64,000 bases of DNA from a candidate division WOR-3 bacterium (lineage in GTDB: Bacteria; Hydrothermota; Tepidihabitantia; Tepidihabitantales; Tepidihabitantaceae). The stretch spans positions 32,001 through 96,000 of the forward strand of contig CBFGKH010000002.1 of assembly GCA_965649295.1 (NCBI GenBank), written 5' to 3'. Each line of letters opens with the position of its first letter. Position 1 is the stretch's first letter. Both the position numbers and the translations under genes were made by a program. Of this stretch, positions 2,458 through 8,855 are shown in pieces. The notes under the pieces are model-generated. The model ran no database searches. It was given only the letters and a program-made list of their open reading frames with translations, and was not told the DNA's origin.

Positions 2458-2769
2458 CCCCAACCCCTAACGACAAGCTGGCCATTTCTCCGACTGCAGC
2501 CGGTACGGCAATGCTACTGGTAAGGCAGGGCGGGAAGCGGCTTGCAGGAGAGGCCCAGAAGTTCTTGGCCAAGCCCTGCTAAGGGTAGAGCCGCGAATCT
2601 GGTGGACAGGATTGGGAGAGGCCAGTTCGCCGACCGAGGCGCCAATGGCGGGTAAAGCCCAATCGGCAGGAGTGAAGCTAGCTGGCGGCAAGAGAGACCC
2701 AGACACTACTACACAAAGTTGGCGGGAATGAACGCCGATGGTCTGTTTGGAGGCTTGCTCGGTCATAGC

Positions 2770-2789
2770 CTCGGGAACCACTCCCGGGA
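2770..2789. repeat. Degenerate dispersed palindromic intergenic element, copy 1
   Basis: CTCGGGAACCACTCCCGGGA resembles 46933-46953 and 32641-32657. Confidence 0.45.
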
Positions 2790-3030
2790 CAGTAGAGGGT
2801 GGGGTGGGCAAGAATGGCATAGCTGTTTGATGAATCGGAAGTTAGTGGCCAGAGAGCAATGCCGATTGGCCCGCAGTGAGCCATGATTCGGCTCTGCTGC
2901 CCAGAACAGCGGTCCAGAAGATATAACAGGGATGGGGTGTAGAGCCCGCAAGGTTTGGGGTCGGTTTGACTTTGGCGTGGCAGGCCGTAGGCTTGGCTTA
3001 TGATTTTCAGTCGCCGTAGGGAGGTGGCCA

Positions 3031-3549
3031 GTGTCCAGATACGATGAACTATGTAATGCCTATGTTGCGGCCCGAAACGAGTTCTTTCAGCGCCGGGAGC
3101 GGTGCGTCGCTTTTGCAGCAATGCTGATGAAGGGATTCGAGACCTATATCGGGGCACCGCTTTTTCAGATGCGCTTTGTGCCGCATACTGGCGATGCGGC
3201 CGCGGCCAAAACTAATTCGCCGGATGCGGCAGCGTGGCTGGGGAACGACGGACGGTGGCACTTCCTTATCGGCCTGCCGCTGGTCGAACGGGTTCAGGGG
3301 AGCAACAAGGGCGGTACGACGCAGACGCTGCGGTTCGACCTCCATGTCGCGCCGGTCGAAACGGGCTTCAACGTCGGCGTGACCGGGACGAATGAACGTT
3401 TTGACCTGCCGGCAACCGAGAACGCGCCTGAGCACCAGCCGTTCTTTGAGTTTCTTTACGGGCAGATGGCCCGCGTCTATCAGCAGCCGGGCCTGAAGTT
3501 TCTCGATAACATGCCCGACACCCTGCGCACCCTGCACGGTGACCGCTAG
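3031..3549 (+). CDS. Hypothetical protein (172 aa)
   Basis: GGAGG RBS before GTG and plausible protein composition; no family recognised. Confidence 0.75.
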   Translation: MSRYDELCNAYVAARNEFFQRRERCVAFAAMLMKGFETYIGAPLFQMRFVPHTGDAAAAKTNSPDAAAWLGNDGRWHFLIGLPLVERVQGSNKGGTTQTLRFDLHVAPVETGFNVGVTGTNERFDLPATENAPEHQPFFEFLYGQMARVYQQPGLKFLDNMPDTLRTLHGDR

Positions 3550-3811
3550 GCACTGATTGCTGGCGGCAGTCGTTAGCTGAGCCTTTGGCGCCGGAGCGGC
3601 GGTGGCACCGGCCCCACGACTGCGCTTTGTCTGTTGCCTTCCTGTCATTCCGGGCATCGCGAGGAATCGCCGCGGCCGGGCGGCGAAGAACCGCCGGCCC
3701 GGAGGAGAGACCGTCCGCGGTCGCCGTTCGCCGTAGCCTGTCAAGACGACCAGGCTGGACGCAGTTTAGTGCGCCCAGCCTGGAGGTTGTTGCCGACAAC
3801 CGCTGGCTCGG

Positions 3812-5956
3812 CTAGAAGCTCAGTCTGATTCCCGCGCTAAAGACCCGACCGCGTGACGGGCCCCAGAGGGGCACTTCTTCCACCAGCCAGCCAGATTGGA
3901 CGTAGTCAAAGAGATTCTCGACACCGGCGGAAATGACTAGGTTGGAGCCGACCGGCTGCGATGCCCGCACGTTCCAGAGGGTGTAGGTCGGTGAATAACC
4001 GGCCCGCACCAGCTCGCCGGCTACGCGCTGCTGATAGGGCATGCTGCCGACCAGCTCGCCGTTCAACGTCAGCTTGTGCCCGAGCCGGGGATGTTCATAG
4101 CTAGCTTGCCAGTTGGCAGCGTGGCGTGACCGATAGACGAGCGGCTCACCACTGGTTCGGTCATGAGCATCGGTGAACGTGTAGCCAGCACGCAGCTCGA
4201 AACCGGCAGGCAGGCGCAGGCCGATATCGAGTTCGAGCCCTTGAGTCACAAACGAGCCGACGTTCTGGTACTGGTAGCGGCGAAGCAGGTTTGCGCTGTC
4301 GTATTCGACCAGCCGTTCTTCGATCATGTTGCTCAGGTCGTTTCGGAACAGACCGGCCGTGAGGACAAAGTCACCGGGATGGTATTCGGCGCCGAGCGTC
4401 CCGCCGATTGACCGTTCGGGAACCAGGCGTGGGTTCTGGATGAAATCGTACATTCCCTGGCCAGGGCAGAAATGGGTCAGTTTCGAAAAGGTGGGGGGTG
4501 TCTTGTTGCCAAGGCCGAACGTACCGCGCACGGTCAACTTGTCGGTGGGGTCAAACTGGACGGCAAGGCCAGGGGTGAGCGAGATGCCGAAGTCAGAGTG
4601 TCGCTCAACTCGGGCGTGGGGTGTCAGTTGGAGTAGTCCCAGCCGCAGACGGTCTTGAATCGAGAGGCCGGTCATGGCGACAGAGCGCACGCTCAGGCGC
4701 GTGTTCTCCACCAGTCGTTCGTAGCGATGGCTGGCTGCTGCTTGCAGCGCATGGTTCTGGGTTAGCGTCTGTCTCACCGCAAGTTCCAGAAAGACGGCGT
4801 CTTCGAACGCATTGAACCACTGGTTGGCGACAAAGACTCGCTGCCGGTAGTCGGAGTAGGTGCCCCGCAGCCAGACACTCGTGGCTGCGCTCGGCTGCCA
4901 AGAAAGAGTTGCGTTTGGGCCCCATTGGCGGATGTTAGGATTCTGATAGAGCCCGGAATCGGACCGGCCAAGAATCCGCGCAATCGCGCCGCCTTGGCGT
5001 TCTTCAATATTAGCATTGGCTCCGAGACTGAGGTCGAGCTCACTGCCGAGGCGCTGGTTCAGCTTCAGAGTCAGTGCTGCCCGGTCGGCTTTGACGTAGT
5101 CGGAATTGCCGTCGCGGTCAATGTCCACTGGGTCGGCCTGGCTCTTGCTTAGGCTGACGCTGACGCCGGTATTTTCAAGCTTCAGGTTGAGCGTTGCGCC
5201 CAGCGCCAGCGTTCCGTAGGTACCGGCGCTCAGATTGACAGCGCCGCCGGTGGTGTCGGCCGACTTGGTTACAACGTTGACTGCACCAGCGATGGCGTCG
5301 CCGGAGTAGGCTAGCCCGCCCGCGCCCTTGACGACCTCGAGCCGTTCAACATTCTCGGTGGCGAGGTGCGAGAGGCCGTAGAATGTGCTGATGTCGGAGA
5401 GTGACGGGGCGCCGTCAACAAGTACCTGGGCATACTTGCCGGCCATGCCCTGAATCTGGACCTCAGCCGCGTTACTGCACGGACACTTAGTTTTCACGGC
5501 CACGCCGGGCTGCCAGCGCAGTACCTCCTGAATGTTGGCGGCGCCGCGCTCGGCGATTTCCTGCTCCGAGACGACGGCAGTGGGCACCGGCTTGTCGTCT
5601 AGGGTGCGCAGGTCAGGTCGCACCGCAATCGAAGGCATTTCTACTGGCTGGGGCCGAAGCCGGAAAGAGGCTTCAACCTGGCCAAAGGCCGGTACCATGA
5701 CGGTGAGGGTCTCGGTGCCGAACCCGACGGCTGAGGCGACAATCCGCTGCCGGCCAGCCGGAACACCGACAAGTTGATAGTGACCAGACTCGGTTGCGGC
5801 CGCGCCCAGCTTAGTGCCGATAACAACAAGATGGGCAAGGGGAATTGGATCACCGCTGGCGTCGTCAATGACGATGCCGGTGACAACCCCAGTCTGCGCG
5901 GTGGCAATCGCCGCGGCGACAAACAGTAGCCAGGCAGTTCTACTAGCAAGACTCAC
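3812..5956 (-). CDS. TonB-dependent outer-membrane receptor with N-terminal carboxypeptidase-regulatory-like domain
   Basis: Signal peptide, plug motif ERLEVVKGAGGLAYSGDAIAGAVNVV, LVPERS, GVENLFD, and C-terminal Phe. Cys motifs CPC and HFC. AAGGAGG RBS before GTG. Confidence 0.92.
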   Translation of the reverse strand: MSLASRTAWLLFVAAAIATAQTGVVTGIVIDDASGDPIPLAHLVVIGTKLGAAATESGHYQLVGVPAGRQRIVASAVGFGTETLTVMVPAFGQVEASFRLRPQPVEMPSIAVRPDLRTLDDKPVPTAVVSEQEIAERGAANIQEVLRWQPGVAVKTKCPCSNAAEVQIQGMAGKYAQVLVDGAPSLSDISTFYGLSHLATENVERLEVVKGAGGLAYSGDAIAGAVNVVTKSADTTGGAVNLSAGTYGTLALGATLNLKLENTGVSVSLSKSQADPVDIDRDGNSDYVKADRAALTLKLNQRLGSELDLSLGANANIEERQGGAIARILGRSDSGLYQNPNIRQWGPNATLSWQPSAATSVWLRGTYSDYRQRVFVANQWFNAFEDAVFLELAVRQTLTQNHALQAAASHRYERLVENTRLSVRSVAMTGLSIQDRLRLGLLQLTPHARVERHSDFGISLTPGLAVQFDPTDKLTVRGTFGLGNKTPPTFSKLTHFCPGQGMYDFIQNPRLVPERSIGGTLGAEYHPGDFVLTAGLFRNDLSNMIEERLVEYDSANLLRRYQYQNVGSFVTQGLELDIGLRLPAGFELRAGYTFTDAHDRTSGEPLVYRSRHAANWQASYEHPRLGHKLTLNGELVGSMPYQQRVAGELVRAGYSPTYTLWNVRASQPVGSNLVISAGVENLFDYVQSGWLVEEVPLWGPSRGRVFSAGIRLSF

Positions 5957-5960
5957 AGTA

Positions 5961-6048
5961 TCCTCCTTTTGTTCGGTTATTCTGCTGCCACTGCTCCGTC
6001 TCGGCTGGAGACGGAGTGTTGCGTTCGAGTTAGGAAAGGGAAGGAGGA
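5961..6048 (-). promoter_or_regulatory. Putative SD/anti-SD translational switch between the uORF and the TonB-dependent receptor
   Basis: 8-bp inverted repeat 5961-5968/6041-6048 (receptor SD versus uORF S-P-P-S codons) enclosing a 9-bp hairpin 5994-6002/6008-6016. Confidence 0.55.
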
Positions 6049-6431
6049 CTGCGGGGACCGAGCTGACCGAGATAGCACTGGTTCGGATGCTGAGCTGTTG
6101 TCTCGGCCCGCGGCCAAGGAGTTGGATTCGCTGCGGGCTGGGCGCAAACTGGGTCAGCTATCGCCGGCAGTTGCCGTTCCGCCCGGGGCTGAAGCGGCTG
6201 GGCTTTGGCAAGTCGGGTCGGACATGTCCGGCATTCCTGAACCGCGGGCCGCAACTGGCCGGCTGATTGGGACGGACTGGCAGTGGTGGTGAGGTGCCCA
6301 GTACAGCAGTTTAACTCCATCGGACTGGCCGTACCGTCGCCGCAGCCGCAGATGTTACGTTGCAGCGGCTGCAGGGCGACCAAGACGGCACAGACCAGAA
6401 TCAGTGCTCGTGTTCGTTCTGATGCCACCAT
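6030..6431 (-). CDS. Cys-rich exported small protein, DUF2946/CruR-like upstream ORF with RAPP-like arrest motif (RSPP)
   Basis: N-terminal hydrophobic segment, CGC, CC and CxxC (CRTC) motifs, C-terminal GPRSPPSLS. Lies directly upstream of the TonB-dependent receptor. Start may be GTG 6428. Confidence 0.7.
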
Positions 6432-6434
6432 CTA

Positions 6435-6463
6435 AGTCTATTATCCTCCGGCTGGACGGTCAA
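6435..6463 (-). promoter_or_regulatory. Sigma70-type promoter for the uORF/receptor operon
   Basis: TTGACC-17-TAGACT on the minus strand, 6 nt before GTG 6428. Confidence 0.6.
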
Positions 6464-6491
6464 CGGTAGCCGTCACTCGGCGCTACCTGCG

Positions 6492-6520
6492 TTGACTTGG
6501 CCGGTTACAGCCTCTATAAT
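6492..6520 (+). promoter_or_regulatory. Sigma70 promoter of the rpmH operon
   Basis: TTGACT-17-TATAAT. Confidence 0.85.
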
Positions 6521-6536
6521 CCGACCCGAGGAATTT

Positions 6537-6674
6537 ATGCCCAAGCGAACATATCAACCATCTCGCGTCAAGCGCGCGCGCACCCACGGTTTCCGAGCCC
6601 GGATGAGCACGCCGAGCGGCCGCAATGTTCTCCGGCGGCGGCGGCAGAAGGGTCGCAAGCGTCTGACCGTATGA
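6537..6674 (+). CDS. rpmH: 50S ribosomal protein L34
   Basis: [23 protein letters not shown]...GRKRL; GAGG before ATG 6537. Confidence 0.97.
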
Positions 6675-7064
6675 ATGTCCGACTCGCCTGCTGCCGATAT
6701 GACCTTGAAGCGAAGCGAGATACTGAGGCGCCGCCGCGACCTTGGTCGGGTAATCCGCTCCGGCACGAGAATTGCCGGCCCGGCGCTGTATCTCCGTTTC
6801 GCACCCCAGCCTGCTAGTTCAGACAATCTGCCGGCCCGGCGTATTGCCTTTCTGCTTTCGCGGCAGGTTGGCACCGCCGTTGTCCGCAACCGGGTCAAGC
6901 GGCTGCTGCGGGAGGCCTATCGCCGGCACAAGGACTGGTTCCGACCGGGCTATGACTATGTGCTCGGAGCTGGGCCAGGCGTAGTCGGTCTCAGTCTCGG
7001 TCAAATCGAAGAACAGACCCGGTCGCTGACCGGTCGCATAGCCCAAGATGACACTAGTGCTTAG
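6675..7064 (+). CDS. rnpA: Ribonuclease P protein component
   Basis: AVVRNRVKRLLRE (RNR motif) and position after rpmH. Confidence 0.93.
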   Translation: MSDSPAADMTLKRSEILRRRRDLGRVIRSGTRIAGPALYLRFAPQPASSDNLPARRIAFLLSRQVGTAVVRNRVKRLLREAYRRHKDWFRPGYDYVLGAGPGVVGLSLGQIEEQTRSLTGRIAQDDTSA

Positions 7065-7299
7065 TTTGCTAGTTCGACTGTACCAGCTCACGCTCGGGAC
7101 GGTCCTGCCCAATGCCTGTCGGTATCAGCCGAGCTGCTCTAACTATGCGCTGGAGGCGCTGCGCTTGCACGGGGCTGGTCGCGGCTCGCTGCTCGCTCTG
7201 CGCCGGCTGCTGCGCTGCAATCCGTTCTCTGGCGGCGGGTTTGACCCGGTGCCGCCGGCAACCAACCCTGAACTGGCCAATACAAGGAAGGCGAAGTGA
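7048..7299 (+). CDS. yidD: Membrane protein insertion efficiency factor YidD
   Basis: CRYQPSCSNYA...RCNPFSGGGFDPVP. Confidence 0.95.
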   Translation: MTLVLSLLVRLYQLTLGTVLPNACRYQPSCSNYALEALRLHGAGRGSLLALRRLLRCNPFSGGGFDPVPPATNPELANTRKAK

Positions 7300-8855
7300 A
7301 ATCAGATACGACCCGGATGATCGTCGGCTTCTTGCTGATTCTCGTTATTCTTATCGGCTGGCAGTTGCTCTATCGGCCCAAGCCTCGGGTTCAGCCGACG
7401 CCAACGGCTGAAGTGCCGCCACCAGCGCCAACACCAGCACCGGCGCCAACAGCGGAGCCGAAGGTAGCGCTGGCTCCAATGCCGGCGATTCCAGTAGCCG
7501 AGACAACGGTCGTATTGGCCAATGATTTCTTGCAGCTTGAGTTCTCGAATATTGGCGGCCGGTTGCTGCGGGTTCGCCTGAAGAAGTTCGATGCCGAACT
7601 GGTACCTGAGTCGGGCGCGCTGCTTGGCACCACGCTCGTTACTGATTCGGGTGCGTTCAGCCTAGCCCCGGTGCCGATGAAGGTGACGGGCAGCGATAGT
7701 AGCGTTGAGTTCAGTTATGAGGCGGGCGGCATCGGCATCAGCAAGTCGTTTGTCCTCGGGCCACGCTATGCGCTGCGCCATAACATTAGCACCACTGGTG
7801 CTATTGGCGTCGTCCTTGATGGTGCGGCGGGCTTGGCTCTGACCGAGACTGCGTCCAAGGAGGGGCTTGGTTATTACAGCTTCTCGGTGCGGAACGGCCG
7901 CAAGACCCGAACGGTCGCAGCTACTAAACTGAATAAGCCCTGGAGCAATAACGAACCAGCCGCCTGGGTTGCGGCCCGTTCGAAGTACTTTGTGCTGGTG
8001 CTGGCCGGGCCGGATTCGAGCTTTGACTCCTGCCATGCGTTCCGGCTGGAAGACGGTCGCGTTGGGTTCGGGGCAGCGAGCCACCGGCCGCAACTGAATC
8101 TGACGCTCTATCTTGGTCCGGTTGACGAGCGAGAGCTCGGGCCGCTCGGGCTGGGGGGAATCATCGCCCACGGCTGGACCCGGCCGATTGAACTGGCGAT
8201 GCTCTGGCTGCTGCGGTTGCTCTACTCGCTGGTCCGCAACTGGGGCCTGGCCATCGTCATCTTCGCGGTGCTGATGAAGGCGTTGCTCTGGCCGATCTCG
8301 CGCACCCAGACAAAACAGATGCGGCAGATGCAGTTACTGCAGCCAAAGCTGAATGAGCTGAAGGCCAAATACAAAGACGACCAGCAGAAGCTCAACGCCG
8401 AGACGATGCAGCTCTACAAACTGTACAAGATCAATCCGCTGGCCGGCTGTCTGCCGATGCTACTGCAACTGCCGATATTTTGGGCACTGTACGCGGTGCT
8501 GCGCAACGCGATCGAGATGCGCGGTGCCCGTTTTGTACTCTGGCTGCACGACCTGTCGCAGCCCGACACCTTGTTCGGCCATCTTCCGCACGGTATTCCG
8601 CTAATCGGCGGCTATGCCTTTGGCCTGCTGCCGGTAATGATGGGCGTCTCGTTTATCGCCCAGAATCTGATAACCTCGACCGACAAGAAGAACTGGGCCT
8701 TGACGATTATCTTCCCGGTGTTCATCACCGCCATCTTTCTGAACCTGCCGAGCGGGCTGCAACTCTACTGGTTTATGTATAACATTCTATCCATCGGCGA
8801 GACTCTGTTCGCCGTCAAAGGAGGTAAGCTATGGCGCAAGCAGACGAGTCAGTGA
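7296..8855 (+). CDS. yidC: Membrane protein insertase YidC
   Basis: N-terminal TM, periplasmic domain, NWGLAI, INPLAGCLPMLLQLPI, LPSGLQLYW. Confidence 0.95.
   Translation: MKSDTTRMIVGFLLILVILIGWQLLYRPKPRVQPTPTAEVPPPAPTPAPAPTAEPKVALAPMPAIPVAETTVVLANDFLQLEFSNIGGRLLRVRLKKFDAELVPESGALLGTTLVTDSGAFSLAPVPMKVTGSDSSVEFSYEAGGIGISKSFVLGPRYALRHNISTTGAIGVVLDGAAGLALTETASKEGLGYYSFSVRNGRKTRTVAATKLNKPWSNNEPAAWVAARSKYFVLVLAGPDSSFDSCHAFRLEDGRVGFGAASHRPQLNLTLYLGPVDERELGPLGLGGIIAHGWTRPIELAMLWLLRLLYSLVRNWGLAIVIFAVLMKALLWPISRTQTKQMRQMQLLQPKLNELKAKYKDDQQKLNAETMQLYKLYKINPLAGCLPMLLQLPIFWALYAVLRNAIEMRGARFVLWLHDLSQPDTLFGHLPHGIPLIGGYAFGLLPVMMGVSFIAQNLITSTDKKNWALTIIFPVFITAIFLNLPSGLQLYWFMYNILSIGETLFAVKGGKLWRKQTSQ

Follow-up and report, generated by a model that had tools for sequence, protein, structure and literature searches.

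The principle of a ligand-sensing nascent peptide that gates a downstream gene is represented by CruR and CutF. CruR of Bordetella pertussis (Bp2923), a member of DUF2946 (PF11162) encoded before the TonB-dependent receptor gene bfrG/crtA, carries a RAPP motif three residues before its C-terminus at a fixed spacing from a CXXC motif (PMC9426467). Toeprinting of its arrest placed the two Pro codons in the ribosomal P and A sites (PMC12992588), and copper is proposed to relieve the stall (PMC9426467). The stall of CutF from Rhodobacter capsulatus melts a stem-loop that shields a ribosome-binding site (RBS), and periplasmic copper is proposed to prolong it (PMC9973294). A C-terminal R-x-P-P motif in a small secreted or membrane protein encoded by an upstream open reading frame (uORF) is also found in ApdA/ApdP, the RQH family and SecM, which monitor Sec or YidC from a position before sec or yidC genes (PMC7897499, PMC10987492, PMC10951233); in the SecM model the stalled ribosome disrupts a helix in which the Shine-Dalgarno (SD) sequence is hidden (PMC10987492). 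Moreover, a survey from 2025 reported that secreted uORFs with RAPP or RGPP are enriched upstream of TonB-dependent receptors in Gram-negative phyla (PMC12992588). Here we analyse a leader gene with an RSPP motif that precedes a TonB-dependent receptor in a candidate division WOR-3 bacterium (GCA_965649295.1). The window, i.e. the whole stretch of DNA analysed, comprises 64,000 nucleotides (nt) of contig CBFGKH010000002.1 (32,001-96,000, forward strand); genome-wide counts of open reading frames (ORFs), motifs and promoters refer to the window's own genome (G000), which has a G+C content of ~62%. By analogy with the systems above we hold, with moderate confidence, that the leader is a CruR/CutF-like nascent-chain sensor, in which a stall on PRSPP would unmask the SD sequence of the receptor.

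A previous sequence-only reading of this stretch had placed the leader ORF, the receptor start, two complementary octamers and a hairpin and had listed CGC, CC and CxxC motifs; all of its coordinates proved correct, and the three motifs are present. It had also named the downstream gene a TonB-dependent receptor, which is confirmed by its Plug, barrel and CarboxypepD_reg domains. The protein-coding elements of the pair are the following.

6030..6431, minus strand: leader ORF P0001, 133 amino acids (aa), conserved upstream of orthologous receptors
6348..6425, minus strand: hydrophobic helix at the N-terminus (residues 3-28) in the AlphaFold2 (AF2) model, which may be an export signal or a membrane anchor
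6342..6350, minus strand: Cys28-Gly-Cys30 (CxC), both Cys invariant in the 11-sequence alignment
6303..6308, minus strand: Cys42-Cys43 pair, C42 nearly invariant, 84-85 residues before the Arg of the arrest motif in the window's subclade
6222..6233, minus strand: Cys67-Arg-Thr-Cys70 (CxxC), at -60 and -57 relative to the arrest Arg, C70 invariant
6042..6056, minus strand: putative arrest motif Pro126-Arg-Ser-Pro-Pro130 (CCC CGC AGU CCU CCU), followed by SLS and TAA
3812..5956, minus strand: TonB-dependent receptor P0002, 714 aa, with the Pfam domains CarboxypepD_reg (N-terminal), Plug and barrel

Protein searches with the leader alone were empty, and homologues were therefore sought via the downstream receptor: a word-indexed homologue search with P0001 as query gave no match, P0001 has no Pfam or NCBIfam match, and no Rfam family (E<=1) was found in 5500-7000. 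Receptor orthologues (E<=1e-60) are present in eight of the 66 genomes of the order, all of them within the window's own family. All six receptor loci with an intact 5' end harbor the leader, i.e. a same-strand upstream ORF of ~131-152 aa, one of which ends in PRSPPLS directly before its stop codon. One locus was left out because a contig end cuts it (L019, G016), and another as rearranged or misassembled, since its receptor lacks both signal peptide and leader (L017 in G041, with the same arrangement in L030). The receptor of L017 is 72% identical to that of G012 and is fused in frame to an unrelated coding sequence upstream, an arrangement that represents either a real rearrangement or pseudogene, or an assembly artefact shared by L017 and L030. 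A profile built from the six members recovered the same six and nothing else from 272 genomes of the phylum. Among 1.84 billion representative proteins it gave six matches, four of which are proteins of the profile loci; P0007, which ends in PRSPPHN, is a new member, and P0008 (993 aa, nine matched stretches) was left out of the member count. A receptor-profile scan of metagenome contigs yielded six loci, namely, four new members ending in PRSPPSL, PRSPPSI, PRSPPSSQ and PRSPPHN before the stop codon, one duplicate of L014 and one rearranged form. A locus search over genome contigs with a single receptor protein found none, and a scan of genome contigs with the receptor alignment returned G024 and G012 again plus one weak unrelated match. 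A weak match in G007 (E = 2e-4) was held to be spurious, because it contains two in-frame stops and this genome has no receptor orthologue. The family set thus comprises 11 distinct leaders, ten of them with DNA, and within the collections searched its occurrence is limited to a single bacterial family without cultured members.

The synteny of leader and receptor, proposed as a check by the sequence-only reading, is conserved. A TonB-dependent receptor follows downstream in all ten leader loci with DNA, and the spacer between the two genes ranges from 73 to 146 nt; in the window, 73 nt separate the leader stop TAA (6032-6030) from the receptor GTG (5956). The outer upstream neighbours vary by locus, with rpmH-rnpA-yidC on the other strand in the window and unrelated genes elsewhere, and the loci share no conserved gene over the 1.5 kb that follow the receptor. 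Neighbours differ while the pair stays together, which identifies leader plus receptor as the conserved unit. Nucleotide differences peak at codon position 3 in nine of nine leader pairs compared, as expected if the leader frame is the translated one. The motif R[SGA]PP occurs within the last nine residues of just 11 of the 18,393 genomic ORFs of at least 40 aa. The leader ORF is a real, conserved gene.

Constraint within the leader is unevenly distributed, and the leaders diverge far more quickly than the receptors. The alignment lacks any conserved stretch of 7-10 columns, and the leaders of G024 and G008 are only 49% identical, compared with 86% for their receptors. Nevertheless, eight columns of the 11-sequence alignment are invariant (M1, C28, C30, C70, P126, R127, P129 and P130) and three further ones nearly so (L16, C42 and S128). 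The conservation of the cysteines in homologues, on which the earlier interpretation depended, thus holds for three invariant residues and for one pair at a fixed distance from the Arg. Relative to this Arg, the Cys layout of the window's subclade is -99/-97 for CxC, -85/-84 for CC and -60/-57 for CxxC. All 11 members possess a Cys pair 57-64 residues before the Arg; nine of them have a Cys at exactly -60, and the remaining two have it at -59 and -62, respectively. A CxxC at the homologous position is found in four of the 11 (window, L027, L028 and L029), the others having CxC or a different spacing, and the sequence between the last Cys pair and the Arg is not conserved. The N-terminus is hydrophobic in 11 of 11 members. 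In the AF2 model based on the 11-row alignment only the N-terminal helix is confident (H3-19 and H21-28; predicted local distance difference test score [pLDDT] 78-91 for residues 1-20); past residue 28 the chain is a low-pLDDT coil and predicted to be disordered (mean pLDDT 59). Taken together, the export-type beginning of the protein, its small number of cysteines, their constant distance from the motif and the R-x-P-P two or three residues before the stop codon form a pattern of constraint that fits a regulatory nascent chain.

The C-terminal motif P-R-[S/G]-P-P is present in all 11 members, which bears out the predicted conservation of RxPP in homologues; ten leaders have RSPP, one has RGPP (L014, G051) and none has RAPP. 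The sequence-only reading was right about the presence of RSPP and wrong in placing it at the very C-terminus, because SLS follows in the window. Between PP and the stop codon lie two residues in nine members and three in the other two, and this tail is variable in sequence. Among genomic ORFs of at least 300 aa, a crude set and not an annotated proteome, RSPP was observed twice (7.8 expected), RGPP not at all (11.8 expected) and RAPP twice (14.4 expected), in contrast to 14 occurrences of RLPP and 10 of RVPP. The organism appears to avoid RxPP with a small x, whereas the leader family fixes one. Published work describes RSPP, and RxPP generally, as arrest-prone (PMC12992588, PMC7897499). Random-library screens for stalling yielded RxPP with x being G, A, S or P, and RSPP is among the most under-represented tetrapeptides of bacterial proteomes. 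RSPP is also reported from natural uORFs that group with RAPP-containing uORFs and precede sec and yidC genes (PMC10987492).

The second line of evidence concerns the messenger RNA, in which the codons of the putative arrest motif are predicted to pair with the RBS of the receptor. Three elements are involved.

6041..6053, minus strand: anti-RBS, CGCAG plus UCCUCCUU, corresponding to the R-S-P-P codons plus one base, which pairs with 5954-5968 (probability 0.99-1.00)
5954..5968, minus strand: receptor RBS with the SD sequence AAGGAGGA (5968-5961), the spacer UACU and the start codon GUG (5956-5954)
5994..6016, minus strand: nested GC-rich hairpin of 9 base pairs (bp), CUCCGUCUC/GAGACGGAG, in the spacer between the genes, with no T-run after it

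The octamer UCCUCCUU (6048-6041) falls in the codons AGU-CCU-CCU-U, and the minimum free energy fold of 5940-6060 pairs it with AAGGAGGA, with the hairpin nested inside. The octamer pairing noticed previously stands, and its extent had been understated: a longer fold adds to the 8 bp of UCCUCCUU/AAGGAGGA a 2-nt bulge and 5 bp of CGCAG/CUGUG, giving 13 bp over SD and GUG. Due to these additional 5 bp, the Arg codon is predicted to pair with the GUG start codon. In each of the ten loci, the folded stretch began 30 nt upstream of the Arg codon and extended 18 nt beyond the receptor start; the footprint of a stalled ribosome was set to -14 to +15 nt with the first Pro codon in the P site, in line with usual ribosome footprints. 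The probability that the SD core pairs with this footprint is high in six loci, i.e. 1.00 in the window, 0.99 in L015, 0.77 in L016, 0.92 in L018, 0.97 in L027 and 1.00 in L029. Five loci use CCUCC of the PP codons as pairing register, and L018 uses UUUCCUGAC, which spans the stop codon. Such shifts of register between loci are what selection on pairing rather than on sequence would produce. In a recoding control, the leader codons of the footprint were synonymously recoded with genome codon usage, 200 times per locus; only one recode matched the observed pairing in the window, three in L016, eight in L029 and ten each in L015 and L027. Among the 20 Pro codons that encode the PP pair, 12 are CCU, the rarest Pro codon of the genome (11.5%). 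If base pairing of the footprint is prohibited, the SD sequence is left largely single-stranded in the loci with the long-range helix, and the 9-bp hairpin of the window stays.

A promoter abuts the leader start.

6435..6463, minus strand: leader promoter with -35 TTGACC (6463-6458), a 17-nt spacer and -10 TAGACT (6440-6435), found in a consensus scan

It ends 3 nt before the ATG (6431) and 6 nt before the GTG (6428) of the leader. In all ten loci the pattern TTGAC-N16-18-TAnAnT terminates 3-10 nt upstream of the leader's start codon (6-7 nt in seven of them), compared with 270 occurrences in 4.56 M genome positions. Given this proximity to the start codon, a leaderless or almost leaderless transcript is probable, and by promoter geometry the true start of the window's leader may be GTG 6428 rather than ATG 6431. 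At 113 of the 270 matches an ATG or GTG 3-10 nt further on opens an ORF of at least 60 aa, and many of the N-termini are protein-like; leaderless genes thus appear to be common in this organism and their layout is not special to the leader locus. A + strand cluster at 6492-8855, comprising rpmH (6537-6674, L34), rnpA (6675-7064) and yidC (7296-8855), diverges from the leader; its own near-consensus promoter (TTGACT-17-TATAAT, 6492-6520) lies ~30 nt from the divergent leader promoter. Attenuation by an intrinsic terminator was set aside, because a terminator scan revealed no terminator-like site in the spacer.

The observed anatomy, conservation and nucleotide-level selection, together with the predicted pairing, can be arranged into the following mechanism, in which arrest, signal and sign of control are inferred. 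Leader and receptor would form one transcription unit driven by the abutting promoter. In the resting state, the SD sequence and the GUG of the receptor would be held in the long-range helix with the R-S-P-P codons, whose closure would be helped by the nested hairpin. The leader ribosome would come to a halt when Pro129 occupies the P site and Pro130 the A site, in the manner of RxPP motifs, and would cover the anti-RBS, i.e. the arrest codons themselves, thereby freeing SD and start codon for translation of the receptor. The nascent chain exposed at this stage would bear the three Cys clusters, the last of them ~60 residues from the stall site. Ligand binding, thiol chemistry, folding or export at the cysteines may then pull or fold the chain and end the stall; the released ribosome would terminate 3-4 codons further on, the helix would re-form and receptor synthesis would stop. 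Ligand binding, thiol chemistry or co-translational folding or export at this site is suggested by the invariance of the cysteines and by the constant number of residues between them and the peptidyl-transferase centre, and would mirror what has been put forward for CruR and CutF (PMC9426467, PMC9973294). As the receptor is an importer, the CruR sign of control is favoured, and by analogy with CruR we expect the ligand to release the stall and hence to switch the importer off.

A further-reaching version of this mechanism, which we put forward as tentative and rather unlikely in its entirety, regards the leader as a convergent sensor unrelated to DUF2946, in which the normally weaker RSPP would have been fixed because AGU-CCU-CCU doubles as the anti-RBS, so that a constraint on the RNA would have selected the amino-acid motif. 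The ruler of ~60 residues would then correspond to the ribosomal tunnel plus SecYEG, and the last Cys pair would be read periplasmically while the ribosome is stalled, which would make the leader a sensor of thiols or metals that acts across the membrane and is translated from a leaderless mRNA. To equate the ~60 residues, which exceed the 45 of CruR, with tunnel plus translocon and a periplasmic read-out is speculation.

Several observations weigh against the proposed unmasking of the SD sequence by a stalled ribosome. Conservation of the SD pairing in homologues, which the sequence-only reading had named as a test, holds only in part: in addition to the six loci with strong pairing, its probability is intermediate in two (0.35 in L013 and 0.42 in L028) and absent in two others (0.01 in L014, the RGPP member, and 0.00 in L032). 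Five of the ten loci pair no better than their synonymous recodes, with 49 of 200 recodes matching the observed pairing in L018, 65 in L028, 72 in L013, 115 in L014 and 167 in L032. The fold of 5940-6060, which the earlier interpretation had suggested computing, contains the predicted pairing and is modestly more stable than those of shuffled sequences (z = -1.99; five of 200 shuffles fold as well). All loci share ancestry and ten loci are not ten separate trials, so that counts across loci overstate independence. Nor does the locus point to a metal as the signal: the receptor bears no copper-receptor signature, its profile identified no copper receptor among solved structures at <=1e-10, and no metal-linked gene stands beside the leader-receptor pair across loci. 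Exported proteins rich in Cys may also be stable metal binders. Finally, RSPP retains arrest only partially when put into ApdA or ApdP (PMC7897499, PMC12992588), and the context upstream of the motif matters for arrest. The case against chance derives from synonymous recoding, motif rarity and conservation in 11 members, and not from the local fold alone. Taken as a whole, the first interpretation is partly supported.

Among the described systems, CruR and CutF are the closest by function and the RAPP-like arrest peptides by motif. CruR and the leader are both small first genes of their operons; they have an export-type N-terminus, which is putative in the leader, Cys residues whose spacing from the C-terminal R-x-P-P is fixed, the latter lying 2-3 residues before the stop codon, and a predicted poorly structured product, and are followed by a long structured spacer and a TonB-dependent receptor. 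In contrast to this shared layout, the two have no detectable sequence relation, and the leader uses RSPP instead of RAPP and three Cys clusters instead of one CXXC. The spacing between CXXC and RAPP is 45 residues in CruR, where it is kept within 1-2, compared with 57-64 in the leader family, which thus falls outside the range of CruR (PMC9426467). Of the copper-operon genes described for CruR (PepSY_TM, PCuAC, Sco, YcnI and CopC) none is among conserved neighbours in the 1.5 kb behind the receptor, and the leader's receptor is neither CrtA-like nor OprC-like by sequence. The output of CruR is Rho-dependent termination, as opposed to the predicted SD/start-codon helix of the leader. A relation to DUF2946, which had been raised at the outset, is not supported: P0001 matches no family in hmmscan at E<=1, the seven of 11 members scanned match no Pfam family, PF11162 included, at E<=10, a six-frame search of the window's genome with PF11162 gave no match at the locus, and this family was matched in none of the 272 genomes of the phylum. 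The neighbours in a protein-language-model comparison are unnamed small Verrucomicrobiota proteins; one cluster consists to 23% of DUF2946 proteins (rank 22, score 0.95), which is a lead only.

CutF acts as a sensor while it is being synthesised and exported and has a Cys motif as well as a Pro-rich stall site at its C-terminus (PMC9973294), which corresponds to the proposed reading of the leader. [quoted passage not shown] The leader of the window agrees with it (133 aa, PP three residues from the end, a 73-nt spacer and an N-terminal signal inferred from the helix), whereas five of the 11 leaders, with 151-155 aa, exceed the size limit. CutF is a DUF2946 member (bioRxiv 10.1101/2025.02.05.636593), unlike the leader family. 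CutF governs a detoxifying oxidase, and its stall is prolonged by copper, while the importer behind the leader suggests the opposite sign of control. Furthermore, the anti-RBS of the leader family is formed by the arrest codons themselves, unlike that of CutF. ApdA/ApdP, the RQH family and SecM have in common with the leader the conserved R-x-P-P near the C-terminus, the small ORF, the putative localisation signal and, in the SecM model, the disruption of an SD-sequestering helix. They differ in genomic location, since a TonB-dependent receptor instead of secA, secDF or yidC follows the leader, and in its invariant cysteines. The uORF class of the 2025 survey shares both the architecture and the type of downstream gene, and the RGPP member of G051 would fit its criteria; the search covered RAPP and RGPP only, and the ten RSPP members would thus be missed (PMC12992588).

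The alternative that survives best retains the arrest peptide and replaces its output. The stall would shield a Rho utilization (rut) site or otherwise block Rho and thereby allow read-through, and its release would lead to termination in the spacer; Rho could act alone in loci without SD pairing, or alongside SD unmasking. We consider this reading rather unlikely. The genome has a gene for Rho (670 bits, above cut-off), the long spacers (73-146 nt) suit such an output, and the mechanism of CruR is Rho-dependent (PMC9426467). The 3' parts of the leaders contain more C than G, with a C/G ratio of 1.4-2.1 in the best 78-nt stretch, which lies near the 3' end in six of ten loci; L014, one of the loci without SD pairing, reaches 2.06 near its 3' end. 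However, the bias is modest and is explained by coding for Pro, Ala, Arg and Gln, and a Rho output leaves the enrichment of the rare CCU codon and the sensitivity of the SD pairing to recoding unexplained.

Distinctly less probable is a stable exported Cys-rich protein or lipoprotein, such as a periplasmic or surface metal-binding partner of the receptor, for which PRSPP would be a structural, sorting or degradation tag. Gene pairs of a receptor and a small partner are common, and the N-terminal helix and the conserved cysteines would suit such a protein. Three members have L-A-S-C or a similar string just past the hydrophobic segment, which resembles a lipobox; the string is not found in the window's subclade. 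Disorder is predicted past residue 28, divergence is very fast except for the cysteines and the ending, and an RxPP that is depleted in the proteome is invariant here 2-3 residues from the stop codon; in addition, selection for anti-SD codons at the nucleotide level would be left unexplained. Disorder, fast divergence and the nucleotide-level signal make the stable partner less likely. A substrate of the SecM/ApdA type that monitors Sec or YidC, and whose stall reports export capacity rather than a ligand, is improbable: an export-type N-terminal helix with a C-terminal RxPP is the architecture of monitoring substrates (PMC10987492), but the downstream gene encodes an outer-membrane receptor and not sec or yidC, the nearby yidC of the genome is on the other strand behind rpmH-rnpA, and the invariant cysteines at fixed spacing would have no role. 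A chance ORF with coincidental pairing, for which one could cite the frequency of overlapping spurious ORFs in GC-rich DNA and the low z-score of the local fold, is effectively refuted by the conservation data, i.e. 11 members with the same ending, frame and promoter, maximal variability at codon position 3 and the rarity of the ending motif.

The receptor itself offers few hints to the ligand. P0002 is below every NCBIfam cut-off, and the closest solved relatives of the receptor profile are CirA and BtuB. Two cysteines of P0002, C158 in a C-P-x-S of the plug (KCPCS in the window) and C497 in a barrel loop (...THFC...), are invariant in seven receptor orthologues and might be linked as a disulfide or serve as a thiophilic binding site; the plug and the Cys497 loop are poorly modelled by AF2 (pLDDT <50). 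Downstream of the receptor, overlapping minus-strand ORFs (3368-3799, 3049-3744, 2678-3157 and 2467-2820) occupy 2467-3799, where no Pfam or NCBIfam match and no conserved counterpart in the other loci was found. A + strand ORF that runs off the window start (1-2457), convergent with the receptor operon, encodes an HdrA2-like flavoprotein of the heterodisulfide-reductase type (NF040770, E = 1.6e-216, below its cut-off).

Secreted RAPP/RGPP leaders before TonB-dependent receptors and stem-loops that shield an RBS have been published (PMC9426467, PMC9973294, PMC12992588). The earlier proposal that the element may be undescribed consequently applies to the sequence family and its use of RSPP, and not to the kind of switch. 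In the accessible literature on RSPP in connection with ribosome stalling or uORFs, no RSPP leader before a TonB-dependent receptor is described. Of main interest in this sequence-orphan family are the fixed RSPP, the overlap of the putative stall codons with the anti-RBS, and the conserved ruler of 60 residues. The family provides a natural case in which RSPP is the fixed motif, and surveys restricted to RAPP and RGPP would overlook it. Stall motif and anti-RBS reside in one stretch of 13 nt, which makes the locus a clean system to separate peptide from RNA effects, and the conserved spacing of 60 residues represents a geometric prediction of where the nascent chain is read. The CruR/CutF principle would hereby be extended to an orphan family in an uncultured lineage, and its putative occurrence in a lineage without DUF2946 (0 of 272 genomes) argues that such switches arise repeatedly.

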